Origin: a virus | DNA length: 64,000 bases | Direction: 5' to 3' (one strand) | Virus record (IMG/VR): IMGVR_UViG_3300010883_008292 | Coordinates: 12,617 to 76,616 of that record | In this document: positions 3,298-53,855 of the stretch, piece after piece | How positions within the stretch are numbered: position 1 is the stretch's first letter | Layout of the letters: every line of letters starts with the position of its first letter | Position numbers and translations under genes: made by a program | The notes under the pieces: generated by a model | What the model was told of the DNA's origin: nothing | Seen by the model: only the letters and a program-made list of their open reading frames with translations | Database searches by the model: none

Positions 3298-4044
3298 ATG
3301 CCAACAAACTTTTATTTCCAATCGGGCCAAGGACAAGGACAAACAAACGAACAAAGATTAGTCGAAGACTTAGTAATAGAAAGTCTTAAAATCTATGGCC
3401 ATGATACTTATTACCTACCTAGGACACTAGTCAATAAAGATACGATCTTTGATGAAGACGAGCTGTCGAAATTTACACAAGCATATCCTTTGGAAATGTA
3501 TTTGGATAATGTAAATGGCTACGAAGGACAAGGAGATATATTTACAAGGTTTGGACTTGAAGTAAGAGATCAAGCAACCTTTGTAATGGCAAAAAGACGT
3601 TGGGAAGACATGGTAATGACTTCTGGAGGAGCGTTTACACAAACAGCAAGGCCTTCTGAAGGCGATTTAATATACTTTGAAAAAACTAAATCACTATTTG
3701 AAATCAAATACGTTGATTTCCAAAATCCATTCTATCAGTTAAACCAACTTTATGTATTTAGAATAACTTGTGAACTGTTTGAGTACAGCTCAGAAGATTT
3801 GGATACAGGTATTACATTAATAGATGGAATAGAAACTAAATATTCAAACGATATGTTAGAGTATCAGATGAAATTAGAAGATGGAAGCTTATGGCTTAAA
3901 GAAGATACTGGATCTATAATTAATGAATCATATCAAACAACTGCATCAGAGCCAATAGACAATTTAGACTTTGAGAATATTAATTTCCTTGAGGGTATAT
4001 TAGACTTTAGTGAAAAGAATCCATTTGGAGAAATAGGTGTTTAA
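3298..4044 (+). CDS. gp14: Neck / head-closure protein
   Basis: EQRLVEDLVIES.KIYG.D.YYLPR, RPSEGDLIY, NPFYQL, CELFEYS, DFSEKNPFG motifs. Confidence 0.95.
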   Translation: MPTNFYFQSGQGQGQTNEQRLVEDLVIESLKIYGHDTYYLPRTLVNKDTIFDEDELSKFTQAYPLEMYLDNVNGYEGQGDIFTRFGLEVRDQATFVMAKRRWEDMVMTSGGAFTQTARPSEGDLIYFEKTKSLFEIKYVDFQNPFYQLNQLYVFRITCELFEYSSEDLDTGITLIDGIETKYSNDMLEYQMKLEDGSLWLKEDTGSIINESYQTTASEPIDNLDFENINFLEGILDFSEKNPFGEIGV

Positions 4045-20203: not shown

Positions 20204-20827
20204 ATGGCAAAAAGGAGAGACCCAAACTCAGCACACTACATTGACAACAAGGAAATGCTTGTCAAGATAAGTGAGTACAGAGTTAAAAGATTAGAAGCAG
20301 AAGAATGTGGCGAACCCAAACCACGAGTTACAAATTATTTAGGTGAATGTTTTGTTAAAATAGCAAACCACTTAGCGTTTAAATCAAATTTTGTAAACTA
20401 CACATTTAGAGATGAAATGATTCTAGATGGTATTGAAAATTGTCTTACATATATGGACAACTTTGATCCAGCAAAATCTAAAAATCCTTTTGCGTACTTT
20501 ACACAAATCACATACTACGCTTTCATTAGACGTATCCAAAAAGAGAAACGTCAAATGGAAACGAAATTTAAATACATTAAGAGTCTAGATATAGAACAAA
20601 TTTTAGCACATGGTTCTGATGGCGACAGTCACAACAATGAGTACCTTAGTTATATGAGAAATATCATTGAACAGGCTGAAGCAGATAATGCAAAAGCAGA
20701 CAAAGCCAATGAAGGTAAGAAAGTAGTTAAGCGTAGACCAATATATTTAGACAAGAAAATTAAAGCAAAAGAAGCAGCAGAAGCGGCAGCAGCAGCAGAA
20801 GCAGAAAAAGGACAAGTAGGTACTTGA
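20204..20827 (+). CDS. gp55: Late-transcription sigma factor
   Basis: HYIDNKE, YLGECF.KIA.HL..K.NF.NYTFRDEMI.DGIENC, NPFAYFTQI.YYAFIRRIQKEK motifs. Confidence 0.97.
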   Translation: MAKRRDPNSAHYIDNKEMLVKISEYRVKRLEAEECGEPKPRVTNYLGECFVKIANHLAFKSNFVNYTFRDEMILDGIENCLTYMDNFDPAKSKNPFAYFTQITYYAFIRRIQKEKRQMETKFKYIKSLDIEQILAHGSDGDSHNNEYLSYMRNIIEQAEADNAKADKANEGKKVVKRRPIYLDKKIKAKEAAEAAAAAEAEKGQVGT

Positions 20828-20861: not shown

Positions 20862-21740
20862 ATGAAGATAAGATATAGCGAAGTATTTTATAGCGTACAA
20901 GGTGAAGGAAGATTTGTAGGAGTTCCGAGTATATTCCTACGAGTTTTTGGTTGCAACTTTGAATGTAGAGGTTTCGGACAGGAGAGAGATAATTTAATCC
21001 CTGTCGAGGAAATGCCTTACTTTACAGATCCCAAAGCAGATAAAAACCATCCCGAAGCATACAAATCAATAACAGAATTACCTGTTACACCGGTAGGGTG
21101 TGATAGCTCTGCCAGTTGGGCTATGAAATATAAACATTTACAATTAACAGAGACATTAGAAGAAGTGTTTGATCGTATTGTTAAACTATTACCCAATGGT
21201 AGGTTTGACGAGAAGAACGATATCCATTTAGTCATTACAGGTGGTGAACCTCTACTGGGTTGGCAACGGTGTTGGCCAGCCCTTTTAGAGATGTGTAAGG
21301 AAGTAGGTTTACAGAATGTTACTTACGAAACTAATGGCACACAAGATTTACAAAAACAATTGATAGACTATTTTAATGGTGACGGTAAAGACATACATGT
21401 AACTTGGAGCACCTCACCTAAATTAAGTTTATCGGGTGAAGAAGTGTTTGATGCATTAATCCCAGAAGTATTATTGGGTATGCAAGAGGTAAGTAACAGT
21501 CATTTATATAACAAATTTGTTGTTCGAGACATAAATGATTTTGAAGAAGTAGATATATTTGTAGAAGCATACAAAGATGCTGGAGTTAAATTGGACGCAG
21601 TTTACTGTATGCCTGAAGGCGCCACGTTAGAACAACAAACATTAACAGAAAAAGATGTAGCAGAGGCTTGTATGCAGACAGGATATAAATTCAGTCCTAG
21701 GCTACACATAACATTATTTGGCAACGCATGGGGGACATAA
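20862..21740 (+). CDS. queE: 7-carboxy-7-deazaguanine synthase (radical SAM)
   Basis: YSEVFYSVQGEG.FVG.PSIFLR.FGCN..C...GCDS, VITGGEPL, ETNGT, SPKL, PRLH..LFG motifs. Confidence 0.93.
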   Translation: MKIRYSEVFYSVQGEGRFVGVPSIFLRVFGCNFECRGFGQERDNLIPVEEMPYFTDPKADKNHPEAYKSITELPVTPVGCDSSASWAMKYKHLQLTETLEEVFDRIVKLLPNGRFDEKNDIHLVITGGEPLLGWQRCWPALLEMCKEVGLQNVTYETNGTQDLQKQLIDYFNGDGKDIHVTWSTSPKLSLSGEEVFDALIPEVLLGMQEVSNSHLYNKFVVRDINDFEEVDIFVEAYKDAGVKLDAVYCMPEGATLEQQTLTEKDVAEACMQTGYKFSPRLHITLFGNAWGT

Positions 21741-21908
21741 ATGAAAAATAGATTATTAGATTGGATGGATAAAAAAGCAGGTGGGGTAACGGAGAGTGAA
21801 ATTTATCAAAGTAGATGGGTATGGTACCATACTATATTAGCTTTTGAAATATTTTTTACTAACATTCTATTACTTGCAATACTATTACTTCTCGCAATTA
21901 AATTATGA
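21741..21908 (+). CDS. Small membrane protein (55 aa; not in the ORF track)
   Basis: MKNRLLDWMDKK...WVWYHTILAFEIFFTNILLLAILLLLAIKL; coupled to both neighbours. Confidence 0.55.
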   Translation: MKNRLLDWMDKKAGGVTESEIYQSRWVWYHTILAFEIFFTNILLLAILLLLAIKL

Positions 21909-22117
21909 ACCAGAAACAGAAGCAAGCACTTAAAGAATCTCTAGTTACAGTTGGATCTGGCTTTGTTGTCAACTTTCCAATTAGTGTTGTGCTTTTATAT
22001 ATCTTTATTGATGTACTAGCATTATCAACCTTTACAGTATCAGCATTATTAACAGGCTGCTTTACTTTTATAGCCCTCATTAGAGTTTATACTATTAGAA
22101 TGTGGTTTTCAAAATGA
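21905..22117 (+). CDS. Small two-TM membrane protein
   Basis: Two hydrophobic stretches; overlapping start/stop codons with neighbours. Confidence 0.6.
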   Translation: MNQKQKQALKESLVTVGSGFVVNFPISVVLLYIFIDVLALSTFTVSALLTGCFTFIALIRVYTIRMWFSK

Positions 22118-22551
22118 TTAAAATTAAGGAAGCAGACAAACTTTATGTGGGCTGGCAGGAAATGCACCAACTGTGTATTCTTATGGCTCTAGTAATTAGC
22201 GAAAAAAAGTATAAAAGAATTGTAGGTATCAGCAGGGGCGGCCTTATTCCAGGAGTATGCCTGTCCCAATCATTAGACATTCCTTTTGAACCTTTACAAT
22301 GGCAAACTAGAGATGGTGACCTTAGGGACACACTTTCAGTAGCATTAATGGCACTAGAAGATCCAAACGATATATTATTCGTAGACGATGTATGTGATAG
22401 CGGCCAAACAATAGAACAAATTAGAGATATCTTCCCTGAGAGTCACTGGGCTGTACTTTACTCCAAAAAGGGTAACATGGCTATTGACTTTGAAGGCTGT
22501 AGGCTTTATAATAACAAACAATGGATAGTATTTCCTTGGGAGAAAAAATGA
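22114..22551 (+). CDS. Purine (xanthine/guanine-type) phosphoribosyltransferase
   Basis: GISRGGLIP, ILFVDDVCDSGQT PRPP-binding loop, WIVFPWE C-terminus. Confidence 0.88.
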   Translation: MIKIKEADKLYVGWQEMHQLCILMALVISEKKYKRIVGISRGGLIPGVCLSQSLDIPFEPLQWQTRDGDLRDTLSVALMALEDPNDILFVDDVCDSGQTIEQIRDIFPESHWAVLYSKKGNMAIDFEGCRLYNNKQWIVFPWEKK

Positions 22552-23231
22552 GTACGAGTGAGAGAATAAGAACACGGTTAGAAGTAGACGGTAAACGTTA
22601 CTACGCAGCCGATAACATATCACAATATATTAAACCCTTAGAGAAGGCAGAGTTAATAGAAGAACTTACGGAAAAGTTTGAAGGTGTTTTAGATGCTTTA
22701 ATAATAGATAGGAAGAATGATCCTAACAGTATGGACACACCTAGGCGCTTAGCTAAGATGTATATATTAGAAATAATGGGTGGTAGGTATGATGACGACC
22801 CTAGAATAACAGCATTTCCTAATGATGGAAAGTATGACCAACTGATTACTGTTAGAATGGATTTAAAAAGCATGTGTTCACATCATCACCAACCAGTGAA
22901 TGGTGTTTGTTATGTATCATGTATGCCAGGAGAAGAAGTTATTGGACTGTCTAAATATACTAGAGTGGCACAGCATTTAGCATCACGTGGACACTTACAA
23001 GAAGAGCTTTGTGAAATGATTGCAGAAAGAATTGAGAAACTTACAAAGTCTAAGGCAGTAGGCGTTTATATTAAAGCAAGACATGGGTGTTGTGAGAACA
23101 GAGGCATTAGAGCTAGTAACAGTAGCACACAGACAACGGTTCTAAAAGGAGAACTAAAGACGAACCCTTCATTAAAAGAAGAGTTTATGGACAATATAAA
23201 ATTACAGGAGATGAATGGTGGACACGCTTAG
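22548..23231 (+). CDS. folE: GTP cyclohydrolase I
   Basis: DTPRRLAKMY, SMCSHH, IGLSK..R, QEEL, HGC...RG motifs; start at the ATG at 22548. Confidence 0.95.
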   Translation: MSTSERIRTRLEVDGKRYYAADNISQYIKPLEKAELIEELTEKFEGVLDALIIDRKNDPNSMDTPRRLAKMYILEIMGGRYDDDPRITAFPNDGKYDQLITVRMDLKSMCSHHHQPVNGVCYVSCMPGEEVIGLSKYTRVAQHLASRGHLQEELCEMIAERIEKLTKSKAVGVYIKARHGCCENRGIRASNSSTQTTVLKGELKTNPSLKEEFMDNIKLQEMNGGHA

Positions 23232-23745
23232 TAGACAAATAGTATTAGATTTAGAAACACTTTCAACCAGATCTAATGCAGCCATTGTATCAATTGGTGC
23301 AGTAGCAATTGAGAATTTAGAAATAGTAGATGAATTCTATGTGAATGTAGACCCTAAAACTTGTAAAGAGGCAGGACTACACATAGATCCTTTAACAATA
23401 GAGTGGTGGGCCCAACAAGACTTGGAAGCAAGGAGTGCATTAACAGTCAATCCTGTTCCATTAGATGAAGCATTAGATAAATTTGCTACATTTTTTGGCG
23501 AAGGTAAAATATGGGGCATGGGTGCTAATTTTGATGTTGTTATAATGGAAAGCGCTATGACACTATCAGGTTGGAATACTAATAGAGATGCAAGAGATAA
23601 ATTCCCTTGGAAGTTTTGGGACATTTTTTGTTTAAGAACTTTAATGAATGTTTTAGGTAAACGTTTACCCAAAGCAAATAACCACAACGCATTAGATGAT
23701 GCAAAAGCTGAGGCAGAAATGCTAATTCAAATTTTAAAAACATGA
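23215..23745 (+). CDS. DEDDh 3'-5' exonuclease (RNase AS / DexA-like)
   Basis: LDLETL, SIGAV, TIEWW..Q, WGMGANFD, HNALDDA motifs. Confidence 0.85.
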   Translation: MVDTLSRQIVLDLETLSTRSNAAIVSIGAVAIENLEIVDEFYVNVDPKTCKEAGLHIDPLTIEWWAQQDLEARSALTVNPVPLDEALDKFATFFGEGKIWGMGANFDVVIMESAMTLSGWNTNRDARDKFPWKFWDIFCLRTLMNVLGKRLPKANNHNALDDAKAEAEMLIQILKT

Positions 23746-25010
23746 AACATACTTTAGACTATGTAGTATCAGGAACCTCATACATGCGTTTGAGTAATCC
23801 TAACATTGCTTTTGATAAAACGAATACAAGCATTGTGTCTATGCTAATAAAGAAATTAGTACAAGATCAATTCAGCCATAAGTTTTCATTACTTTATAAT
23901 GCACATACAGAACATTCTTTTGGTGATAGATTTAAACCATATCATGATGCTGCACATAGCATACATGCAGACTCAGGTGGACTTCAAATTATCACTCAAG
24001 GAATGACAATTACAGATGAATTAAAAGAAAAAGTATATAGGAACCAGGCTAAAGGAGCTGATGTTGGCATGTGTTTTGATGAGATACCTGTTATACTTAC
24101 AGGGGAACGCTCAGATAGGAACGATGTTAAACAAAGGTTCTTTGACCACGAAAATTATGAGGAGTTAGCTAGAAAGACTGGACGCAATGTTAAAAAACAG
24201 TTAGAAATTTTTGAAGAAGAAGGTAGTAGCTGTGAACCATATATTATTCTACAAGGTAACGATGTAGATACTTATTTAAGATGGTATGAATGTTTAATGG
24301 AGGAGATACCTAGTGAATGGCATAGCAGGATCGGTGGTGTGGCAATGGGAGCAGCTGCTCTCGGAACAGGACCATTAGAAGATGTAAAAAGAGCCTTCAT
24401 AGCATCAGAAATAGCGAAGACATGGCCACGAGATAAGATGCACTTACATATATTAGGCGTAGGTTCTATAAGACGTATAGTTCCTTACCTAGTCTTTTGT
24501 CAGAACGGTTTGTATGACAATGTAGAGATATCATATGACTCTACTACACACAGCAGGGCGGTTGAGACAGGGTTATTCTACATGGGACAAGGCACAACTA
24601 AGTTTAATAGACAGATGTCTAATTTGTATCGCGAAATGTATCAAAACTGTATGAAAACGATCGATTTGGGAGTAGATTTAGACGAATTTCATCACTTATT
24701 AAACACCCCGAGTATGAAAGCTAAAGATGAATACGGCAATTTAAATACATGGTTGTATGTTAGAACAGCTTTTATACTAATGTCTATTAGAAACTTTATG
24801 CAACACTTAGAACAGATGTTGTTAGATAAGGACGCCCTTTTAAAGTTTACGAAGAAGATGAAACTTGATGGACAGTTTAGGAACCTATATAATGTAAAAA
24901 ATAAAGATGATTATATAGCGTGGGAATCAAATCAATATTTAGGTGGGTCAATGAAGTCAATGGCAGTAGCCAGAGAGATGCCTGCTAGCCTGGAGGAATT
25001 ATTTGGATGA
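23742..25010 (+). CDS. dpdA: TGT-fold DNA deazaguanine transglycosylase (DpdA-like)
   Basis: ADSGGLQ, CFDEIP, ILQG, GGVAMG, HLHILGVG, SYDST motifs of the TGT barrel; no C-terminal Zn site of tRNA TGT seen; lies within the queE/folE/queD cluster. Confidence 0.82.
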   Translation: MKHTLDYVVSGTSYMRLSNPNIAFDKTNTSIVSMLIKKLVQDQFSHKFSLLYNAHTEHSFGDRFKPYHDAAHSIHADSGGLQIITQGMTITDELKEKVYRNQAKGADVGMCFDEIPVILTGERSDRNDVKQRFFDHENYEELARKTGRNVKKQLEIFEEEGSSCEPYIILQGNDVDTYLRWYECLMEEIPSEWHSRIGGVAMGAAALGTGPLEDVKRAFIASEIAKTWPRDKMHLHILGVGSIRRIVPYLVFCQNGLYDNVEISYDSTTHSRAVETGLFYMGQGTTKFNRQMSNLYREMYQNCMKTIDLGVDLDEFHHLLNTPSMKAKDEYGNLNTWLYVRTAFILMSIRNFMQHLEQMLLDKDALLKFTKKMKLDGQFRNLYNVKNKDDYIAWESNQYLGGSMKSMAVAREMPASLEELFG

Positions 25011-25360
25011 AAAAGTTTATTAAAGTTAGTTTCCAGAAAGAAGGTATACACAAATACCCTGGAGCAAAAGATCTACCAGGTGTAGAGTTTTTACAGTATC
25101 CACACAGACATATCTTTCACTTCTATGTTACGTTAGAAGTTATGCACGACAATAGAGAAGTAGAATTCATCTTATTTAAAAGAGAGTTAGAGGAACAGTA
25201 TGCAACAGGAATCCTCGAACTAGACTACCAGTCATGTGAAATGATGGCTGAAAGTCTTATAAATTATATAGAAGTACATTATCCTAATCGAGCAATACAA
25301 GTAGAAGTGTATGAGGATAATGAAAACGGGGCAATAGTACAGAATGATTTATTTAATTGA
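25007..25360 (+). CDS. dpdL: QueD-paralogous T-fold protein, DpdL-like (putative CDG decarboxylase)
   Basis: LQYPHRHIF = LxxxHRHxF in place of QueD CxxxHGH; SCEMMAE and V.VYED.ENG C-terminal T-fold motifs. Confidence 0.7.
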   Translation: MKKFIKVSFQKEGIHKYPGAKDLPGVEFLQYPHRHIFHFYVTLEVMHDNREVEFILFKRELEEQYATGILELDYQSCEMMAESLINYIEVHYPNRAIQVEVYEDNENGAIVQNDLFN

Positions 25361-26411
25361 TCTAGAGTATGTCGAAACAAGATATACTGCACAGTGGAAA
25401 ACAGAATTTCCACAGTCAATAGCGGACAAGACAGGACAAGACATTACAGTTATTGAAGGCCCTATCATAGAGTCTGATGTTTCTTCAGGATCATTTTTAG
25501 ATTTTGCCGCCACTAACATATACAAGTCAGAACAAACAAAAATATTAGCACAGTTCTTTGCAGAAGGTAAAATAAAAGATGGAGATCATTTTGTATTTGC
25601 TGATGCCTGGCACCCAGGTGTTTTAAATTTAAAATATATGGTAAGCCTATTGGGGTATGATGTTACAATACATGGCCTCTGGCATGCAGGAAGTTATGAT
25701 ACAAATGATTTCTTAGGTAGAGATATAGGACCTGTACCTTGGGTAAGGTATACAGAGTTAGCAATGTTCGATGCGTTTGATAAAAATTATTTCGCTAGCC
25801 AATTCCATATAGGTATGTTTGCTAGTGTTATGGCACCCGATCCTAGTCAACAAGAATATTTACAGAGTAAAATGGTTAGGACAGGCTGGCCAATGGAATA
25901 TTTAGGACCCACTCTTGACAGAGATACTATAGGTGTAGAGAAACAAAACTTAATATTATTCCCACACAGAAACGCACCAGAAAAACAGTTAGAAATATTT
26001 AAAGACTTAGAAGCTCAACTACCTGAGTATGATTTTATTAACTGTGCAGAGTTTGATCTAAAGAAACCAGACTATCACTTGTTATTAGGGCAAGCAAAGA
26101 TGGTGTTCAGTGCAAACTTGCAAGAGACATTAGGCATATCTTGTTACGAAATTATGAGGACAGGAGGTGTACCTTTTGTACCAAACAGACTTTCATATAT
26201 GGAAATGTATGATGATGTGTTCAAATACCCTTCAATCTGGACAGAGAGTTGGGAAAACTATCAAAACAATCAAGAGAATTTAAAAAATAGAATTAGATAT
26301 TTAATGGAGAACCAGAACAATAATGATATTCGTGGTGCATTAAATACTAATAAAGAAAAACTTGAGAAGCATTATTTCTCAGCAGAAAACTTATATCAGG
26401 AGTTAAGATGA
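25344..26411 (+). CDS. GT-B (GT4-like) glycosyltransferase
   Basis: FPHR.APEKQ, FSANLQETLGISCYE, PFVPNRLSY.EM (E-x7-E GT-B motif). Confidence 0.8.
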   Translation: MIYLIDLEYVETRYTAQWKTEFPQSIADKTGQDITVIEGPIIESDVSSGSFLDFAATNIYKSEQTKILAQFFAEGKIKDGDHFVFADAWHPGVLNLKYMVSLLGYDVTIHGLWHAGSYDTNDFLGRDIGPVPWVRYTELAMFDAFDKNYFASQFHIGMFASVMAPDPSQQEYLQSKMVRTGWPMEYLGPTLDRDTIGVEKQNLILFPHRNAPEKQLEIFKDLEAQLPEYDFINCAEFDLKKPDYHLLLGQAKMVFSANLQETLGISCYEIMRTGGVPFVPNRLSYMEMYDDVFKYPSIWTESWENYQNNQENLKNRIRYLMENQNNNDIRGALNTNKEKLEKHYFSAENLYQELR

Positions 26412-26878
26412 ACGGACAAGATCCATATATGGACTACAATTATTTTTCAACAAAAACATATGGACATGAACAAGGATTGTCAGCAGTCTTTAGACAACCA
26501 GGTGCAGTAAGTCATTGCAATTTACTACATGGCTACGCATTATCTTTTATGTTTAAGTTTGGCTGTGAACATTTAGATGATAAAGATTGGGTAATAGATT
26601 TTGGAGGACTAGGAGAGCTAAAAGAATGGTTAAAAGAAAACTTTGATCACAAACTTGTTGTATCCAAATCAGATCCACAGATAGATAAGTTTTTAGGCTT
26701 AGAAGAACTAGGTTTAGCTGAGGTAGTAGTAATGAATGGTGTTGGTTGTGAGAAGTTTGCAGAACATGCATTTCATTTTGCTAATGACTTGGTAAATAAT
26801 ATGACAGGCGGGCGATGCTATTGCGTTGCTTGTGAAGTAAAGGAACATGGGGCCAATTCAGCGATATACGAGGGCTAA
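26408..26878 (+). CDS. queD: 6-carboxy-5,6,7,8-tetrahydropterin synthase
   Basis: HCNLLHGY, WVIDFGGL..LK.WL...FDH, GCEKFAE, V.EH.ANSA motifs. Confidence 0.92.
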   Translation: MNGQDPYMDYNYFSTKTYGHEQGLSAVFRQPGAVSHCNLLHGYALSFMFKFGCEHLDDKDWVIDFGGLGELKEWLKENFDHKLVVSKSDPQIDKFLGLEELGLAEVVVMNGVGCEKFAEHAFHFANDLVNNMTGGRCYCVACEVKEHGANSAIYEG

Positions 26879-40061: not shown

Positions 40062-40718
40062 ATGAAAATAAGCACAGGCACTCTTGATATCCTCAAGAAC
40101 TTTGCAACAATTAATACGAACATTCTCGTTCGTGAAGGGAACACATTATCCACAATAAGCACAGGCAAAAATATATTTGCTAGGGCAGAGCTTGGTGATA
40201 GTTTTCCAAAAGAATTTGCAATCTATGATTTAAATAGTTTGCTTTCACTACTAACCCTAATGGAAGATACTGATGTTGACTTTCAAGACGAAAGTTTAAA
40301 AGTTAGTAAAGGTACATCTGTTTTTGAATACTTCTATGCAGACCCTAACATAATAGTTAGTGCACCTGATAAGAGTATTGAAGTAGATAACTTCTTCCAG
40401 TTTGACTTTACAAAAGACGATATTGATATGATATTAAAAGCAGCAGCTATTACAGCAGCTCCTATGTTAAGCATCGTTGGTAAAGATAAGGAAGTAGTAG
40501 TAACAGTTAGTGATCCTAGCACACCTAAGTCTAACAGCTTTAGGCAAGTAATAGGCACAACTGATAAAGAATTTGATGCTAGACTAGCAATAGAAAACTT
40601 TAAGGTAGTACCTGGAAGTTATAGCGTTACACTTTCAACTAAGAAATTTATGTTCTTAGAAAGCAGTAATGGCGAATTAAAATATTGGTTAGCATTAGAA
40701 CGTTCATCTCAAATATAG
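40062..40718 (+). CDS. gp45: Sliding clamp
   Basis: MKIS..TL.ILKNFATIN.NI, FAIYDLN.LL, Y.YADP, YWLALE motifs. Confidence 0.96.
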   Translation: MKISTGTLDILKNFATINTNILVREGNTLSTISTGKNIFARAELGDSFPKEFAIYDLNSLLSLLTLMEDTDVDFQDESLKVSKGTSVFEYFYADPNIIVSAPDKSIEVDNFFQFDFTKDDIDMILKAAAITAAPMLSIVGKDKEVVVTVSDPSTPKSNSFRQVIGTTDKEFDARLAIENFKVVPGSYSVTLSTKKFMFLESSNGELKYWLALERSSQI

Positions 40719-48625: not shown

Positions 48626-48654
48626 TTGACTCTAGGTTCGAAAGAGCCTATAAT
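48626..48654 (+). promoter_or_regulatory. Sigma70-type promoter for gp43
   Basis: TTGACT-ctaGGTTcgaaagagcc-TATAAT. Confidence 0.8.
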
Positions 48655-48681: not shown

Positions 48682-51177
48682 ATGAATTTTTATACTTATG
48701 CGCGTCATTACGGCGACAAAATCCTGGTCCGTGGAGTGAAGAACGGAGAACGTTTTACCTCACGACACGACTTCAGACCTACCCTATTTGTCAAATCAGA
48801 CAAACCCTCAGAATACAAAAGCATTTTTGGAGAGAAAGTATCTCCTATACAGTTTGATTCTAACAAAGAAGCAACTGACTTTTTTAGTAGATATAAAGAC
48901 ATTCCTAACTTTCCAGTATTTGGGCAAAACTACTATGCCTACCAATACATAACAGAAAAGTATCCTGGAACAATTGAATGGGATGCTAAAAAATTAGCCA
49001 TTTACTCTATTGACATTGAAACAACGTCAGATGGTGGCTTTCCTAACGTAGACTCTCCGAGTGAGAAAGTTCTAGTTATCACACTTCAAAACAACAACAC
49101 CAAGAAGATAACAACTTTTGGCCTCGGAGAGTTTACACCTAAGGACGATACAAAACATTTAGATATAGATTATCATAATTGTACAGACGAATATGCTCTT
49201 CTTAAAACCTTTTTAGACTGGTGGGAGTCTAATACTCCAGACGTTATTACGGGCTGGAACTCTAACTTATTTGATATACCCTACTTACTTGCTAGAACAG
49301 AAAAAATATTAGGCGAGAACGAACATAAAAAATATTCTCCCTTTGGCATAGTACAGAAAAGAAACGTTAGATTCATGGGACAAGAAAAGACAGCATTTGA
49401 AATAGTAGGTGTTGCACAATTAGATTATTTAGACTTATATAAGAAGTTTACTTATGTTACTCGTGAATCCTATAAACTAGACTTTATTGCAGAAACAGAG
49501 CTAGGTAAAAATAAACTTGATAGTGGCTTTGAAACATTTAAAGAGCATTATGAGAAGGATTGGAATGGATTTGTAGAGTATAATATTATTGATACAGTTC
49601 TTGTTGATGAGTTAGAAGATAAAATGAAACTTATTGAACTGGCCATTACAATGGCATACGATGCTAAATGTAATTATAATGATGTATATTCTGCGGTTAG
49701 AACGTGGGATAGTTTATTATATAATCACTTATGGGAAAAGAAAATTGTCTTACACCAAGGTGGTGGCAGGAAAGATAGAACAATAGAAGGAGCATATGTA
49801 CAGGAACCAGTACCCGGTAATTATGATTGGGTTGCTAGTTTCGATGCCACAAGTCTATATCCTTCTATTATTATGCAGTACAATATGAGTCCGGAAACTA
49901 TTATTCCTGATTTTAAATATGATGTGAAAGTAGATGACTTGATAGATAGGTATAAGTTAGACAAGTTAAAAGAAAAGAATTATGCTATGGCAGCTAATGG
50001 AACTTGTTATTCGAGGGAAAAGCAAGGCCTGTTTCCTGAGATAGTACAAAAGTTTTTTAATGATAGATTAAAATATAAAAGACTTATGCAAGAGTCACAA
50101 AAGAAGTTCCAGGAAACTGGTGCCAAAGTTTATGAAAATGAAGTTAGCAAATATAATAACTTCCAAATGGCAAGAAAAATTCAATTGAACAGTTTATATG
50201 GCGCCTTGGCAAACCAATACTTTAGATTCTATGATGATAGACTTGCTGAAGGTATTACAATGACCGGCCAGTTAGTAATTAGAGACACGGCAAAGGCATT
50301 AGACAAATATATTAATAAGGTCTGTGGTACGGAAGATCAACAATATTCGTTTTATAGCGATACTGACTCCTGCTATGTTACTTTGGACAATATGGTTAAA
50401 AACTTTTTCCCTGATAAAAGCAAAGATCAGGTAGTAGGTTTAATAGATACGATTGCATCTGAGAAAATAGAACCAGCAATAGATCAGGCAATGCAAAAGT
50501 TGGCTAACTATACTAATGCTTTTGAAAAGAAAATAGACTTTAAAAGGGAGATTATAGCAGATAAAGGTATATTTGTAGCTAAGAAGCGATATGCTTTAAA
50601 TGTATATGATGACGAAGGATTGAGACTTAAAGAACCCAAGTTAAAGGTAATGGGATTAGAGATAGTCAGATCAAGCACTCCTGGCGTAATTAGAGAGTCT
50701 CTAAGGGAGGCCGTACGTCTTATACTTACTAGCGATGAAGAAACATTACACTCCTACGTAGCAGACGCCAAAGAGGACTTCCTCAGCAAAACAGCTGAAG
50801 TAATAGCATTTCCTAGAGGCTGTAACAATATGAAGAAGTATAGAAGTACCGCAGACATATATGGCAAAGGAACTCCTATTCACGTTAGGGGTGGATTGCT
50901 ATATAATCATTATTTGAAGGAACATAATTTAAATTTAAAGTATGAGAAAATCCAGGAAGGAGATAAGATTAAGTTCTTATATTTAAAAGAGCCTAATCCT
51001 ATAAAAGAAAATACGATAGCATTTATTACCAAACTTCCAAAAGAATTCAATTTACAGAAATATGTAGATTACGAACTAATTTTCCAAAAGGCATTTGTGG
51101 ATCCTTTAGAAAATATATTGAATCCACTGGGCTGGCATACCGAACCCCAAGCTTCCTTAGAGGACTTATTTACATGA
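48682..51177 (+). CDS. gp43: Family B DNA polymerase
   Basis: SIDIET, TGWN..LFDIPY, SFDATSLYP, KIQLNSLYG, YSDTDS motifs; C-terminal SLEDLF clamp peptide. Confidence 0.98.
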   Translation: MNFYTYARHYGDKILVRGVKNGERFTSRHDFRPTLFVKSDKPSEYKSIFGEKVSPIQFDSNKEATDFFSRYKDIPNFPVFGQNYYAYQYITEKYPGTIEWDAKKLAIYSIDIETTSDGGFPNVDSPSEKVLVITLQNNNTKKITTFGLGEFTPKDDTKHLDIDYHNCTDEYALLKTFLDWWESNTPDVITGWNSNLFDIPYLLARTEKILGENEHKKYSPFGIVQKRNVRFMGQEKTAFEIVGVAQLDYLDLYKKFTYVTRESYKLDFIAETELGKNKLDSGFETFKEHYEKDWNGFVEYNIIDTVLVDELEDKMKLIELAITMAYDAKCNYNDVYSAVRTWDSLLYNHLWEKKIVLHQGGGRKDRTIEGAYVQEPVPGNYDWVASFDATSLYPSIIMQYNMSPETIIPDFKYDVKVDDLIDRYKLDKLKEKNYAMAANGTCYSREKQGLFPEIVQKFFNDRLKYKRLMQESQKKFQETGAKVYENEVSKYNNFQMARKIQLNSLYGALANQYFRFYDDRLAEGITMTGQLVIRDTAKALDKYINKVCGTEDQQYSFYSDTDSCYVTLDNMVKNFFPDKSKDQVVGLIDTIASEKIEPAIDQAMQKLANYTNAFEKKIDFKREIIADKGIFVAKKRYALNVYDDEGLRLKEPKLKVMGLEIVRSSTPGVIRESLREAVRLILTSDEETLHSYVADAKEDFLSKTAEVIAFPRGCNNMKKYRSTADIYGKGTPIHVRGGLLYNHYLKEHNLNLKYEKIQEGDKIKFLYLKEPNPIKENTIAFITKLPKEFNLQKYVDYELIFQKAFVDPLENILNPLGWHTEPQASLEDLFT

Positions 51178-52016
51178 TAGAATATGACAAAGAACTAGTA
51201 CACAATGCGTTGGGTAGACCATATTGGATATATGCAGACGACACATTTTATCAACAAAGAATTGCAGGTGCAGGACCATACCAACAGAAGAATTTAAAAT
51301 ACATTAGAGCATTGGTTCCTAATGCCAGAACAATAATTGATGTTGGTATGAATATAGGAATGAATACTATTGAATATGCCACTTGGGCTGATGAAGTAAA
51401 ATCATTTGAACCTGTTAAACAAACATATGATATGGCAAAACTTAATATAGAATTAGCTAAAGAACAAAAAGAGTTCTTAAAAACATGGTGGCCTAATTCA
51501 TCACTACTACAAATAGCAGATATAGAAGCTCATAATTGTGGTTTAGGTGATAAACCAGGATCCTTTGAAATACAGATTAAAAGAAATAATGCAGGATCAA
51601 ATCATTTAAAAAGAACCCATACAAAAAGAGGTCCTGTTGGAGCAACTACAAAACCAAGCGTAGACGAAATACAAACAGTTCTGATAAACACATTGGATTC
51701 TTATGGATACAAAGATGTAGATGTAATTAAAGTAGATGCTGAGGGTTATGAATACCCTGTAGTTATGGGTGCAGAAGAAACTATAATGAGAGATAAACCG
51801 GTTGTTCAATTAGAAATGATTGCAGGACAGCCAGAAAGATTTGGATACACATTACAAATGATACAGGATTGGTTCCTTGAAAGAGACTTTATTATTACAT
51901 TACCAGATGGTACTGAAGTTGATGACGAGTTTACCTATTATAAGAAGAATGTAGAGAGATTTTTTATACATAAAAGTAAGTATGAGAAAAGAACATTAGA
52001 GGATTTATTTACATGA
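51174..52016 (+). CDS. FkbM-family methyltransferase
   Basis: IIDVGMNIG, SFEP, NCGLG, TLDS, VIKVDAEGYE..V..GA...I....P...LE motifs. Confidence 0.9.
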   Translation: MIEYDKELVHNALGRPYWIYADDTFYQQRIAGAGPYQQKNLKYIRALVPNARTIIDVGMNIGMNTIEYATWADEVKSFEPVKQTYDMAKLNIELAKEQKEFLKTWWPNSSLLQIADIEAHNCGLGDKPGSFEIQIKRNNAGSNHLKRTHTKRGPVGATTKPSVDEIQTVLINTLDSYGYKDVDVIKVDAEGYEYPVVMGAEETIMRDKPVVQLEMIAGQPERFGYTLQMIQDWFLERDFIITLPDGTEVDDEFTYYKKNVERFFIHKSKYEKRTLEDLFT

Positions 52017-52129
52017 TATCAGGTTGGATACTTTTTGCAGCACTAATATTTGTCAATACTGCTGTATATGTAATGATACAGATGTATTTTGAAGGGCACC
52101 CAGCATTTACAGACGGGGATCATATATGA
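52013..52129 (+). CDS. 38-aa membrane peptide (not in the ORF track)
   Basis: MISGWILFAALIFVNTAVYVMIQMYFEGHPAFTDGDHI; ATGA overlaps at both ends. Confidence 0.5.
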   Translation: MISGWILFAALIFVNTAVYVMIQMYFEGHPAFTDGDHI

Positions 52130-52896
52130 GACGCAAAAGTAACCGGTTCAACCCCGCAATTCATCGGGTAGAACTGAACAATAGCTTACAATGGATCAGG
52201 CACAATGGCCAAATCATCCTGTTTGTCAATACGCCAAAGAACGCCTCCACAACGATAAGAGAATACTTGAACATTCATGGCACTGATTTTTCTCATTATC
52301 ATGATGCGCTGTACTCTATTCCGCAGGAGATCGAACACAGCCCGTATAAGATTTGTGTTATACACAGAGAACCAATGGCAAGACATTTGAGTGCAGCATC
52401 TATGATCGCGGGAGAAATTGAACAGACATATGGCATAACGGGATTGGATTCCAGTGACTTTTATGATCTGCACAGAGTTCGCGATCTTCACTTAGTTCCT
52501 CAATGGGCATTCGTGCCAATGTGTATGCCCCCAATGGATTCAGATAGCTACCTCATGTTGGGTGGAGACAAATACGATTGGAACGATCTGTATCGGGACT
52601 TGATAGGAAAGTACGGGTTTGAAAATCTAATAAACGAACACTATGATTTCTTTTGGATGTCAGAAGACCCGAGAGAAAACGTGTGGATGGATATCTGCAA
52701 ACATTATGATATGCCCCTAATGGATAAAAAACATAATAACTCTGTAGGGGACCTTAGCTATGATAGGAAAGATAAGCCAATAAAGAATTTAAGTAAAATG
52801 ATCACTTCTGTACACTCTGCATATGCTTGTGACTATGATTTTCACCATAGAGTAGCGTACAGAAACACCAAATGGAGAGAAAATGAGACACGGTAG
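52126..52896 (+). CDS. Sulfotransferase-like protein
   Basis: FVNTPKNASTTI (5'-PSB loop), REP..R.LSA (3'-PB), HLVPQ motifs. Confidence 0.65.
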   Translation: MRRKSNRFNPAIHRVELNNSLQWIRHNGQIILFVNTPKNASTTIREYLNIHGTDFSHYHDALYSIPQEIEHSPYKICVIHREPMARHLSAASMIAGEIEQTYGITGLDSSDFYDLHRVRDLHLVPQWAFVPMCMPPMDSDSYLMLGGDKYDWNDLYRDLIGKYGFENLINEHYDFFWMSEDPRENVWMDICKHYDMPLMDKKHNNSVGDLSYDRKDKPIKNLSKMITSVHSAYACDYDFHHRVAYRNTKWRENETR

Positions 52897-53068
52897 GAAT
52901 AGCGCATACGGCCGTAAGGCTAGACAAGAAGGAGCTTTGGAAAGACTTATCGCTTCTAAATTTACAGAAAAAAAGATGAAGGATGGGCATACTAGAAATG
53001 AAGAAAGCTGGAGCAAGAAAAAAGAGCTGGACATTGAAAGACTTGAACAACATATTAAACAGACCTAA
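52883..53068 (+). CDS. Small basic hypothetical protein
   Basis: Coupled ORF with a GGAG RBS. Confidence 0.5.
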   Translation: MRHGRNSAYGRKARQEGALERLIASKFTEKKMKDGHTRNEESWSKKKELDIERLEQHIKQT

Positions 53069-53855
53069 AGCAGTAATAGTAGGATATGGTTTTGTAGGTA
53101 AAGCTACAGAATATTTCTTAAAAACTCATGTTGAAAATCCACCAGAGATATTGATACATGATCCTGCATTAAAAATGAAGGTATCTGATTGGAGTGGCAT
53201 AGACTATGCTTTTATATGTGTTCCAACTCCATTAAAAGGATCAGTACATGCTGTTGGTAGAAAACTGGATATAGATATAGTAGATGAGGCTTGTAAGAAA
53301 GCTTTTACTAGAGGTGGAGTATCTAGAATTGTTATACGAAGTACAATAGGCCCAGATCAGACATCTAAGTACACAACAAATATGGGTGCAATTATCTGGC
53401 CTGAGTTTTTAAGAGAAAAACATTGGAAAGAGGATATTGATAATGCAGATTTACCAATGGTGGTAGGTGGTTATCAAATAGATCACTTTTTAAAAACTAT
53501 TCAATGTCATAAAAAGATTTTTGTAGTTAAGCCTCAGGAAGCAGCGATGATGAAAATAGGAAGAAATGCTGCGCTTGCTATAAAAGTAGAGTTAGCCAAT
53601 GAATTTAAAAATATATGTGATGAATGGGATATGGATTATAAGGTAATAGCAGACTTTTTTAGTAAGGATCCTAATTTAGGAAAGACACATTGGGACGTTC
53701 CAGGCCCAGACGGAAAGGTAGGATTCGGGGGTACTTGTTTACCAAAAGACTTGACTCACACTTCATCGATCTGTTATAATTATGATAATATTTTAAAAGT
53801 TGCGAGTACCGCAAACAAAAGAAGGAGAAGTAATGAACTTAATAGAAAAACTTAA
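52983..53855 (+). CDS. UDP-glucose/GDP-mannose dehydrogenase family protein (short form); true start probably ~53034-53043
   Basis: IVGYGFVG, FICVPTP, IRST, PEFLRE, GFGGTCLPKD motifs. Confidence 0.88.
   Translation: MGILEMKKAGARKKSWTLKDLNNILNRPKAVIVGYGFVGKATEYFLKTHVENPPEILIHDPALKMKVSDWSGIDYAFICVPTPLKGSVHAVGRKLDIDIVDEACKKAFTRGGVSRIVIRSTIGPDQTSKYTTNMGAIIWPEFLREKHWKEDIDNADLPMVVGGYQIDHFLKTIQCHKKIFVVKPQEAAMMKIGRNAALAIKVELANEFKNICDEWDMDYKVIADFFSKDPNLGKTHWDVPGPDGKVGFGGTCLPKDLTHTSSICYNYDNILKVASTANKRRRSNELNRKT

Follow-up and report, generated by a model that had tools for sequence, protein, structure and literature searches.

A methyltransferase gene with a polymerase-type C-terminal tail behind gp43 of a marine T4-like phage

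In phages of the T4 family, the C-termini of gp43, gp55 and gp33 are highly similar, hydrophobic and acidic, are interchangeable and bind the sliding clamp gp45, and these epitopes are attached through divergent linkers of variable length (PMC2988020). Such gp45-binding tails have been described as an LDFL-type motif, with DNMT1 and PCNA as a parallel case (PMC9690074). The other systems close to the present one are the phage 7-deazaguanine systems (DpdA with FolE/QueD/QueE, DpdL, DpdM and DpdN), in which the TGT-fold enzymes act on DNA after replication, and where FolE, QueD, QueE, TGT-fold and T-fold genes without QueC are the gene pattern of dDG or dCDG phages (PMC10516641). The locus described here lies in a 64-kb window, by which we mean the whole stretch of DNA that was analysed, on a contig of 76.6 kb, and its central gene encodes a methyltransferase (MT) of the FkbM family. 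The FkbM-type enzymes characterised so far O-methylate small molecules or sugars, and we know of no FkbM-family enzyme that acts on DNA. FkbM-domain genes of giant viruses are expressed, and DNA methylation was not detected (PMC7253447). A sequence-only reading of the window had stated that FkbM-family enzymes often occur together with glycosyltransferases where phages encode DNA modification; a literature search found no paper saying so.

The gene for gp43, a family B DNA polymerase of 831 aa (48682-51177, + strand; PF00136, PF03104), ends in QASLEDLFT and is followed by that for the MT (280 aa, 51174-52016, + strand; PF05050, TIGR01444), which ends in KRTLEDLFT. Both ends lie within a direct repeat, of which copy 1, TTAGAGGACTTATTTACATGATA, is at 51157-51179 and copy 2, TTAGAGGATTTATTTACATGATA, at 51996-52018; 22 of the 23 nt are identical and the sole difference is a synonymous GAC/GAT change. 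The pair (family D6 in the repeat listing of the window, spacing 839 nt) are the only two copies in the window at up to three mismatches, with none in 100 dinucleotide-preserving shuffles, and an 18-nt core at up to two mismatches finds the same two copies alone across the entire contig. Each copy encodes LEDLFT and a stop, the TGA of which lies within ATGA, so that the next ORFs start at 51174 (the MT) and at 52013 (a 38-aa peptide). The 23-mer also serves translation, as it contains a Shine-Dalgarno-like GAGGA and couples the next gene through ATGA. The near-identical repeat, the shared ends and the stops overlapping the next ATGs, all noted in the sequence-only reading, were reproduced. Once identical peptides are given, finding no more than one mismatch across 18 nt is only slightly improbable for the codon usage of the phage (P ~0.05), so the information lies in the peptide common to both ends and in where it stands, not in the DNA identity as such. 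A third and more diverged copy of the element, CTGGAGGAATTATTTGGATGA (16/21 positions matching), closes a 422-aa gene at 24990-25010 and likewise overlaps the next ATG; gp43, the MT and this 422-aa TGT-fold protein are the only three real ORFs in the contig to end in a polymerase-type tail. Upstream of gp43 is a sigma-70-like promoter candidate, TTGACT-17-TATAAT (48626-48654, + strand, 11/12 matches), possibly the start of a transcript running through gp43, the MT, the peptide and a 256-aa ORF; it is a weak candidate, as promoter-like counts in the region are not above those in shuffles.

The MT appears to be an intact SAM-dependent methyltransferase belonging to a phage-specific FkbM clade, as judged from alignment and model. 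It matches PF05050 at 56 bits (cut-off 22.7; profile positions 1-172 of 173) and TIGR01444 at 62.5 bits (cut-off 37.7; positions 1-142 of 143), so the earlier assignment of an FkbM gene between the repeats holds above both curated cut-offs. Residues D56, G58, N60, E79, D188, E190, G191 and E193 are invariant across 41 homologues, and the AF2 model (pLDDT 90), for which the top PDB match is the FkbM protein 2py6, predicts a class I Rossmann methyltransferase fold in which the SAM-binding glycine-rich loop and acidic residues are intact. Like the FkbM O-methyltransferases (PF05050/TIGR01444; 2py6), the protein has the conserved SAM-binding and K-x-D-x-E-G-x-E motifs; unlike them, the phage clade adds a conserved extension at the N-terminus (GRxYWIY..FYQQRIAxAGPYQ) and, at the C-terminal end, a linker followed by an LF-acidic tail. 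The catalytic core runs to about residue 268 and is followed by a short linker and the tail RTLEDLFT. A canonical DNA methyltransferase (N6A/N4C amino or C5) was considered and rejected, PF05050 and TIGR01444 being the only matches; the closest structures are those of FkbM proteins and of generic methyltransferases acting on small molecules, proteins or RNA, and none is a DNA methyltransferase. DpdM was also set aside, since the MT is a Rossmann FkbM and DpdM a DUF3109 protein with CxxxCxxCC metal sites (PMC10516641).

Related gp43 proteins keep the tail: [ST]LE[DEG]LFx closes 38 of 40 distinct ends (64-100% identity) and the remaining two run six residues further. For the MT, the earlier reading had proposed looking for LxxLF tails in homologues elsewhere, and such tails are found, with an LF motif terminal in 31 and an LF-acidic motif internal in 50 of 120 cluster representatives (81/120 in total); the strict form LF[DE] occurs in 19/120 representatives vs 2/192 neighbouring ORFs. 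The linker before the motif varies in sequence and in length (some 5 residues in the shortest, over 40 in the longest), and when the tree is computed from the core domain alone, each of its three major subclades has members with the motif. Homologues at 35-63% identity have no gp43 within 10 kb and end, among others, in STFSDLFELA, QKLFEEA, PFNKLFEEV, QPFNQLFEEI or PQLFEVEQ, with codons and stop contexts unrelated to the repeat and in some cases TAA stops. Most close relatives have LENLFT (N for D), and those at 83-84% identity have LEDLL, a drift at the supposedly critical Phe that counts against docking by the tail. The spread of the motif among homologues indicates that the tail of the MT is inherited and under selection, and that the motif predates insertion behind gp43, the local copy having been recast to the form of the resident polymerase. 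The suggestion that the duplication gave the enzyme its clamp peptide stands only in part: the tails are older and use unrelated codons and stops, which speaks against creation, and at most an existing tail was recast.

By sequence the MT resembles the gp45 C-terminal ligands, RTLEDLFT standing against ASLEDLFT in gp43 and being retained behind a variable linker. As with the T4/RB69 epitopes of gp43, gp33 and gp55, it has a hydrophobic and acidic peptide at the extreme C-terminus on a variable linker (PMC2988020), and proteins of quite different function within one phage share a tail that equals, or almost equals, that of the polymerase; the difference is that the predicted clients here, in place of a polymerase or transcription factor, are an FkbM methyltransferase and a TGT-fold transglycosylase. 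The proposed partner, gp45, is encoded at 40062-40718 (+ strand; PF02916; phrog_223 at 2.8e-62). A complex prediction of the gp45 trimer with MT residues 240-280 scored 0.59 against 0.00-0.02 for three controls, in a range (up to 0.60) that holds 7 of 80 solved complexes and both passing mismatches; the pass mark is reached by 58/80 solved complexes and 2/110 mismatched pairs, and at least 45% of contacts recur between runs, with a partner pLDDT of at least 45. This score may only reflect likeness, because an RB69 clamp-peptide complex has already been solved (PMC2988020). It counts against docking that in two complete jumbo genomes with LF-tailed MT and gp43, no gp45 homologue was detected with the gp45 of the window as query. 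DNMT1 and PCNA are alike in concept, as a clamp-binding peptide (PIP-box) recruits a methyltransferase to newly replicated DNA (PMC9690074), but the clamp, the motif and its position (N-terminal region of DNMT1, extreme C-terminus of the MT) are unrelated, and the enzymes differ in class, DNMT1 being a canonical C5 DNA methyltransferase and the MT an FkbM-type enzyme with DNA as a putative substrate.

A second line of evidence comes from gene neighbourhoods. The window holds a QueE-PRTase-FolE-exonuclease-TGT-fold-T-fold(117 aa)-GT-B-QueD set (20862-26878, + strand, from family matches), 25 kb from the MT. Its TGT-fold (DpdA-like) protein of 422 aa (23742-25010, + strand) ends in PASLEELFG with its stop over the next ATG; the AF2 model has a pLDDT of 92.5, every top PDB match is a tRNA-guanine transglycosylase, and a C-terminal tail of LF/FF type, usually in the form [ST]LExLFx, is found in 106 of 120 homologues. 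The set resembles the phage 7-deazaguanine systems in having FolE, QueD, QueE, a TGT-fold protein and a second T-fold protein and no QueC, and a tailoring methyltransferase (DpdM) exists in those systems also; it differs in that clamp-type tails are not described for them (PMC10516641) and that the clusters here add PRTase, GT-B, HIT and nucleotidyltransferase genes. The link to a 'dpd' operon drawn in the sequence-only reading is borne out elsewhere, as MT homologues lie amid homologues of the operon genes (FolE/QueE/PRTase/T-fold/glycosyltransferase sets) in at least four other phage lineages and in five arrangements. The order is glycosyltransferase (GT) - FolE - nucleotidyltransferase - MT - PRTase - HIT - peroxiredoxin - QueE in loci L102 and L103, with fragments in the same order in L184, L190 and L232; MT - T-fold - GT - FolE - PRTase - nucleotidyltransferase - QueD - HIT in L151; MT - T-fold - GT in L156; and T-fold - MT - GT in L157. 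Locus L148 holds QueE, HIT, GT, MT and T-fold, and the MT is flanked by GT and T-fold in its relatives L143, L147 and L149. This recurrent co-localisation places the MT as a probable accessory gene of a phage 7-deazapurine/glycosyltransferase module. It is nevertheless dispensable, since a closely related phage, G021, has no MT on its 89.5-kb contig while retaining the TGT-fold gene (87%) and QueE (91%). The FkbM class of tailed enzyme and the link to deazapurine genes are what is new here.

The explanation we put forward, and to which we give about an even chance, is that in this marine T4-like phage the MT rides gp45 by its clamp-type tail and methylates modified phage DNA; clamp binding, DNA as substrate and the methylated atom are the parts that we infer. 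The last seven residues form a short linear motif at the C-terminus, hydrophobic and acidic like those by which T4-family proteins dock on gp45, and this would hook the enzyme onto loaded gp45 behind the fork. There it would methylate the product of the FolE/QueD/QueE/PRTase/T-fold/glycosyltransferase pathway, in DNA or on entering DNA, the methyl group going to an O or N atom, either on a 7-deazapurine derivative or on its attached sugar. The 23-nt repeat would be the DNA face of the tail motif: an MT with a pre-existing tail would have come to sit directly behind gp43, its tail would have been made to match, most likely by recombination with the 3' end of gp43, and the match would then have been kept by selection for a common clamp pocket and for GAGGA-N9-ATGA coupling of the next gene. 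A more specific version is that the MT is a clamp-tethered tailoring enzyme of an undescribed DNA hypermodification, in which the TGT-fold enzyme (also tethered) inserts a QueC-independent 7-deazaguanine derivative, GT-B glycosylates it, and the MT O-methylates the sugar or esterifies a carboxyl at the fork; in this detail the scheme is speculative and we regard it as unlikely.

The best surviving alternative, which we hold to be somewhat unlikely, is that the tail is functional but docks elsewhere, on another replisome or pathway protein, or serves self-association or turnover, with the MT acting on a soluble precursor such as a deazapurine base or nucleotide or a nucleotide-sugar. The purine-type PRTase, HIT and nucleotidyltransferase genes do point to nucleotide-level chemistry, the substrates of characterised FkbM-type enzymes fit equally, and gp55 of this phage has no hydrophobic tail, unlike the T4 paradigm. 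About one third of the MT homologues also have no motif, among them deazapurine-cluster members of L148, L157 and L102, which implies that a role in the pathway, if real, can do without the tail. Against this, the MT has its tail in common with gp43, the T4/RB69 counterpart of which is the classical gp45 ligand; the TGT-fold enzyme, of a type that in phages works on replicated DNA (PMC10516641), bears it as well; and the complex prediction separates gp45 with the MT tail from its controls, albeit in a score range of weak support.

The tail could also be without function on the MT, the repeat being a pure insertion or recombination scar through which the enzyme inherited the last codons of the polymerase when its cassette entered behind gp43, whether by short-homology recombination or by an event that duplicated the target. 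The history of the slot agrees with this in part. In loci L015-L019 gp43 is joined straight to a small ORF (MNLDII..) that comes after the MT in L005, L006 and L011, and comparison of L015 with L005/L006 shows the filled/empty indel to be exactly the MT plus one repeat copy. The empty site that the sequence-only reading had proposed to look for exists, though in another form, as no relative was found in which gp43 is joined directly to the window's own ORF at 52013. The repeat copies bound a precisely gained-or-lost unit, which may have arisen by short-homology insertion or by later deletion between repeats. In the gp43 tree, the MT-bearing clade (support 100/99) has two MT-less lineages nested inside, a topology implying that the MT was gained once and lost twice. 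The gp43-uvsX slot is hypervariable and holds many unrelated ORFs: relatives of the 38-aa hydrophobic (membrane) peptide (52013-52129, + strand, ATGA-coupled to the MT) lie at varying positions within it in related phages, and the 256-aa ORF (52126-52896, + strand; no Pfam, PHROG or NCBIfam match) has a homologue only in L005/L020 among related loci. At its right border, before uvsX, is a short nucleotide-sugar dehydrogenase-like gene (52983-53855, + strand), which follows gp43 in nearly all related loci and abuts it directly in the most distant. The 22/23 nt match and the same rare GAG codon in both copies also suit a scar. Nevertheless, MT homologues far from gp43, with other codons and TAA stops, still end LF-acidic at the homologous position; the three distant homologues inspected (L180-L182) have promoter-like TTGACA sites of their own upstream; the other ORFs of the slot in related loci have no polymerase-type tail; and substitutions in the tail within the clade are mostly synonymous or conservative, whereas the last residue of gp43 varies freely among relatives. 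We regard a functionless scar as very unlikely.

Equally small is the chance that the conserved unit is a translational-coupling module, GAGGA-9 nt-ATGA, with the peptide a by-product of constraint on the RNA. GAGGA stands 9 nt ahead of the overlapping ATG in both copies and in the third at 24990-25010, Glu is encoded by the rarer codon GAG (28% usage) in both copies, and in each of the 40 distinct gp43 ends the stop either overlaps the start codon that follows or adjoins it (xTGA in 34, TAATG in 6). However, most close relatives have GAGAAT in their MT copy, which weakens the Shine-Dalgarno match and keeps a similar peptide (LENLFT), other genes of the slot are ATGA-coupled without LEDLFT, and distant MT homologues retain the peptide motif without an overlapping start. 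A cassette driven by a homing endonuclease was rejected, as no endonuclease gene lies between gp43 and uvsX in the window. In other phages only, weak GIY-YIG-like ORFs were seen upstream of MT homologues.

If the tail does dock on gp45, marine T4-like phages would use the clamp as a toolbelt for DNA-hypermodification enzymes too, besides replication and late transcription, and this would account for the ability of base exchange and tailoring after replication to keep up with a fast fork. The deazapurine/glycosyltransferase module gives a large, unannotated phage FkbM clade its first functional context, with a predicted mass shift of +14 Da from MT activity. The natural MT-plus and MT-minus relatives, with an exact empty site, are a ready-made comparison, and if the tailoring reading is true, such phages of one population would carry chemically different DNA. 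The dual use of the 23-mer as peptide, Shine-Dalgarno-like site and coupled start may let an accessory gene slot in behind an essential one with downstream expression intact.

The window belongs to a viral contig of 76.6 kb in IMG/VR, derived from a marine T4-like myovirus. Cyanophages are the closest cultured relatives of this phage, with similarity limited to gp43 (~65-73% nucleotide identity). A sequence-only reading had proposed that an FkbM methyltransferase cassette is flanked here by a 23-bp duplication of the polymerase 3' end, giving it a clamp peptide. The repeat, the shared C-terminus and the overlapping ATGs on which this was based were confirmed. The 23-mers at 51157-51179 and 51996-52018 are the same except for one synonymous change, no further copy at up to 3 mismatches is present in the window (chance expectation 0), and an 18-nt core of the repeat matches only these two copies across the entire contig. 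The first copy ends the DNA polymerase gene gp43 (48682-51177) and the second ends the gene for a 280-aa FkbM-family methyltransferase (MT; 51174-52016), both products terminating in LEDLFT, with KYEKRTLEDLFT as the C-terminal peptide of the MT. Both TGA stops lie within an ATGA that starts the following ORF, and in each copy a GAGGA is located 9 nt ahead of the overlapping ATG. At the DNA level the repeat combines three signals, namely a C-terminal peptide of clamp-ligand type, a Shine-Dalgarno-like site and a coupled stop/start, and it also marks the edges of a gain/loss unit. The last 21 nt (24990-25010) of the gene encoding a 422-aa protein form a third, diverged copy, with GGAGGA and an ATGA overlap.

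The region behind gp43 was compared in 80 loci with a related gp43 (64-97% identity across the C-terminal 249 residues), which share the backbone gp43, a variable segment, a short nucleotide-sugar-dehydrogenase-like gene and uvsX. The dehydrogenase-like gene directly abuts gp43 in the most distant relatives, and 0.3-2.6 kb of unrelated small ORFs separate the two in the remaining loci. The motif [ST]LE[DEG]LFx is the terminus in 38 of 40 distinct gp43 3' ends and is followed by six more residues in the other two, and every one of the 40 overlaps or abuts the next start codon. As these ends are kept and coupled throughout, the polymerase's copy is an old and strongly conserved element that serves in every case also as the region where translation of the following gene is initiated. 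The tail was found on none of the other ORFs occupying the gp43-uvsX slot.

Several features of this slot were observed in passing. In loci L005 (1690-1741) and L011 gp43 is extended six residues beyond the motif (..LEDLFVGGPIS, then stop), so that the presumed clamp motif is internal, and a new GGAGGA precedes the ATG that follows. A hydrophobic peptide of ~38 aa (MISGW.., often with ..FWREDETR at its end), encoded at 52013-52129 of the window and by P3-like ORFs in L006, L015, L026 and others, occupies varying positions in the slot of many relatives, in every case with tight coupling to the adjacent genes. ORF 52126-52896 (256 aa) had no family match in Pfam, PHROGs or NCBIfam; near the N-terminus of its product is a stretch, ..NTPKNASTT.., that may resemble the PAPS-binding loop of sulfotransferases. 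The dehydrogenase-like gene of the window (52983-53855), whose place between gp43 and uvsX is conserved in almost all of the 80 loci, encodes just 290 aa and scores 100 bits against an NCBIfam cut-off of 190; its product may have been truncated or repurposed.

Carriage of the MT is confined to the clade whose gp43 is at least 85% identical and to a sister group with an 84% identical MT, which there too lies directly behind a gp43 with LEDLFA at its end; L003-L011 are among the MT-bearing contigs. The empty site that the sequence-only reading had suggested looking for exists in exact form in L015-L019, where gp43 is directly followed by the small ORF (MNLDII..) that succeeds the MT in L005, L006 and L011; filled and empty loci differ by the MT and one repeat unit. 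In the gp43 phylogeny a clade with 100/99 support unites the genomes that bear the MT and has two MT-less lineages nested within it, which fits one gain and two losses. Five kinds of gene are found 3' of the MT among relatives. Locus L010 has an insert of ~85 nt (3918-4001), coding for a small hydrophobic peptide, between gp43 and the MT, and the genome closest to it on the gp43 tree, L026, has lost the whole MT.

Two accounts of the repeat had been offered, insertion of the cassette by short-homology recombination and a second clamp-tethered DNA-modifying enzyme; whether the tail is just a scar was judged above all from MT homologues in other phages. The motif was carried by 81 of 120 MT cluster representatives, being terminal in 31 and internal, ahead of a DRPYWNYEPP extension, in 50 (absent in 39). 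A strict LF[DE] close to the C-terminus was found in 19/120 representatives versus 2/192 neighbouring ORFs, and a quick tree of the core domain only places the motif in all three major subclades. The layout is a catalytic domain (ending ..ERFFIHKS), a variable-length linker and then, mostly, an LF-acidic motif, such as STFSDLFELA, TFSTLFK, QKLFEEA, PFNKLFEEV, QPFNQLFEEI or PQLFEVEQ. Homologues of 35-63% identity do not have gp43 as a neighbour within 10 kb, and the nearest of these (L180-L182) have their own promoter-like TTGACA sites, TAA stops and unrelated tail codons. Short-linker relatives can be aligned position by position to the MT of the window (KSKYQGSTFSDLF.. vs KSKYEKRTLEDLFT); the contexts of the nearest ones, P0034 and P0035, come from one metagenome scan, in which most of the contigs are too short to include the cognate gp43. 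LF-acidic tails on homologues away from gp43 show that the MT family had such a tail already and that the tail is more than a scar. In the lineage of the window it has the exact local polymerase form. Each of the two accounts was partly right, with the correction that the tail of the family predates its position behind gp43. In a large MT subclade, the P0042-P0124 group (e.g. L195:6271-7206; 50/120 representatives), the LF-acidic motif is followed by a conserved DRPYWNYEPP..(R/K)xxK extension, which might serve as another docking element.

Concerted evolution of the copies was rejected: in eight related genomes the two copies of one genome differ (by 1-4 nt) at least as much as copies from different genomes do, so that ongoing gene conversion is not supported. 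The pair in the window is the most similar among the compared genomes; DNA identity was discarded as decisive proof of recombination, as it adds little (P ~0.05) once the peptides are identical. Co-variation of MT and gp43 tails between lineages was set aside because cognate pairs are too few: those recovered are TLEDLFT with SLEDLFT, QQLFEEA with TFDSLFDFE and PQLFEVEQ with TFSSLFDFGE, and three MTs without a tail accompany a gp43 that has an LF or FF tail. The simplest origin would be that the existing tail was recast by recombination with the gp43 end as the MT gene moved there, and selection would thereafter have acted jointly on the peptide and on the GAGGA/ATGA signal.

In T4/RB69-type phages the C-termini of gp43, gp55 and gp33 bind gp45; they are hydrophobic and acidic, closely alike and interchangeable, and are attached through linkers that diverge and vary in length (PMC2988020), and the clamp-binding C-terminus of the T4 type has been described as an LDFL-type motif (PMC9690074). 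Only three real ORFs in the contig end in [ST]LE[DE]LF[TG], namely gp43, the MT and the 422-aa protein (23742-25010; phrog_10773). The latter has no Pfam or NCBIfam match, but its fold is that of a tRNA-guanine transglycosylase (TGT; AF2 pLDDT 92.5, top PDB structure matches all TGTs), and 106/120 of its homologues (42-93% identity) have an LF/FF-type C-terminal tail, mostly [ST]LExLFx. PDB sequence searches with the MT profile and with the 422-aa protein gave no usable match. The late sigma factor gp55 of the window (20204-20827; phrog_234) departs from the T4 paradigm, as its end is Ala/Glu-rich and does not have the hydrophobic clamp-type tail of T4 gp55. A predicted complex of the gp45 sliding clamp (40062-40718) as a trimer with MT residues 240-280 scored 0.59, against 0.02 for the best of three controls, and was classed as 'weak support'; the score may mirror likeness only, because an RB69 clamp-peptide complex is already solved. 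Runs shared at least 45% of contacts with a partner pLDDT of at least 45. The pass mark was reached by 58/80 solved complexes and 2/110 mismatched pairs, and passes at a score of 0.60 or below comprised just 7 of the 80 solved complexes plus both mismatches. A search of the complete jumbo genomes G002 and G004 with the window's gp45 found no homologue, which is uninformative for divergent clamps.

The MT is an intact enzyme of the FkbM family. Its homologues in other phages lie beside the same families as those of the window operon 20862-26878 (QueE, PRTase, FolE, exonuclease, TGT-fold, T-fold, GT-B and QueD), which supports a role for the MT in that pathway. L102, a complete 328-kb phage, shares with its relative L103 the gene order GT - FolE - nucleotidyltransferase - MT - PRTase - HIT - peroxiredoxin - QueE, pieces of which recur on the shorter contigs L184, L190 and L232. 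L148 has QueE, HIT, GT, MT and T-fold genes, and in its relatives L143, L147 and L149 the MT is flanked by GT and T-fold. The orders T-fold - MT - GT (L157), MT - T-fold - GT (L156) and MT - T-fold - GT - FolE - PRTase - nucleotidyltransferase - QueD - HIT (L151) were also found. The GTs of L148 and L157 are 49% identical to window gene 25344-26411, and the T-fold proteins of L148, L151, L156 and L157 are 50-56% identical to that of 25007-25360. Caution is warranted, as the in-cluster MTs of L148, L157 and L102 have no tail, and G021, a close MT-less relative, retains the TGT-fold gene and QueE.

The window operon, with FolE, QueD, QueE, a second T-fold and no QueC, matches the gene pattern of phages with dDG or dCDG (PMC10516641). 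DpdM, the known deazaguanine methyltransferase, is a DUF3109 protein and thus belongs to a different family from the MT (PMC10516641). The jumbo-phage deazapurine-type clusters (L102:6792-13374, L151:10001-20825) have FolE, QueE/QueD, a purine-type PRTase, GT and FkbM MT and also combine a HIT protein, a cytidylyltransferase-like nucleotidyltransferase and a peroxiredoxin, a composition that points to reactions on nucleotides or nucleotide-sugars; with the PRTase, HIT and nucleotidyltransferase genes, the chemistry might take place at the nucleotide level. A further reason for caution is that FkbM enzymes are not known to act on DNA. For FkbM-domain genes of giant viruses, DNA methylation was not detectable (PMC7253447).

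The ORF directly 5' of distant MT homologues always belongs to one of four clusters of ~180-250 aa (e.g. L116:9371-9913, L114:9223-9915, L104:2462-3022, L112:3252-3845 and relatives). Two clusters are related to each other (hhalign 72%), and a pattern resembling GIY..YIG is seen, with PF01541 matched below threshold (E 0.0098). The ORF may be a nuclease partner or mobility gene. None of the four is present in the window's genome, and a conserved upstream partner was kept outside the explanation.

In the mechanism proposed here the MT, like the TGT-fold enzyme, would ride gp45 and tailor a deazapurine-derived DNA modification. We consider the chances of the MT docking on the clamp to be evenly balanced, and its specific chemistry on the modification is the less secure part. 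Among the papers searched, none describes clamp tethering of a phage methyltransferase or action of an FkbM enzyme on the DNA of a phage; what is new is an FkbM enzyme class that carries the tail, together with its link to the pathway.
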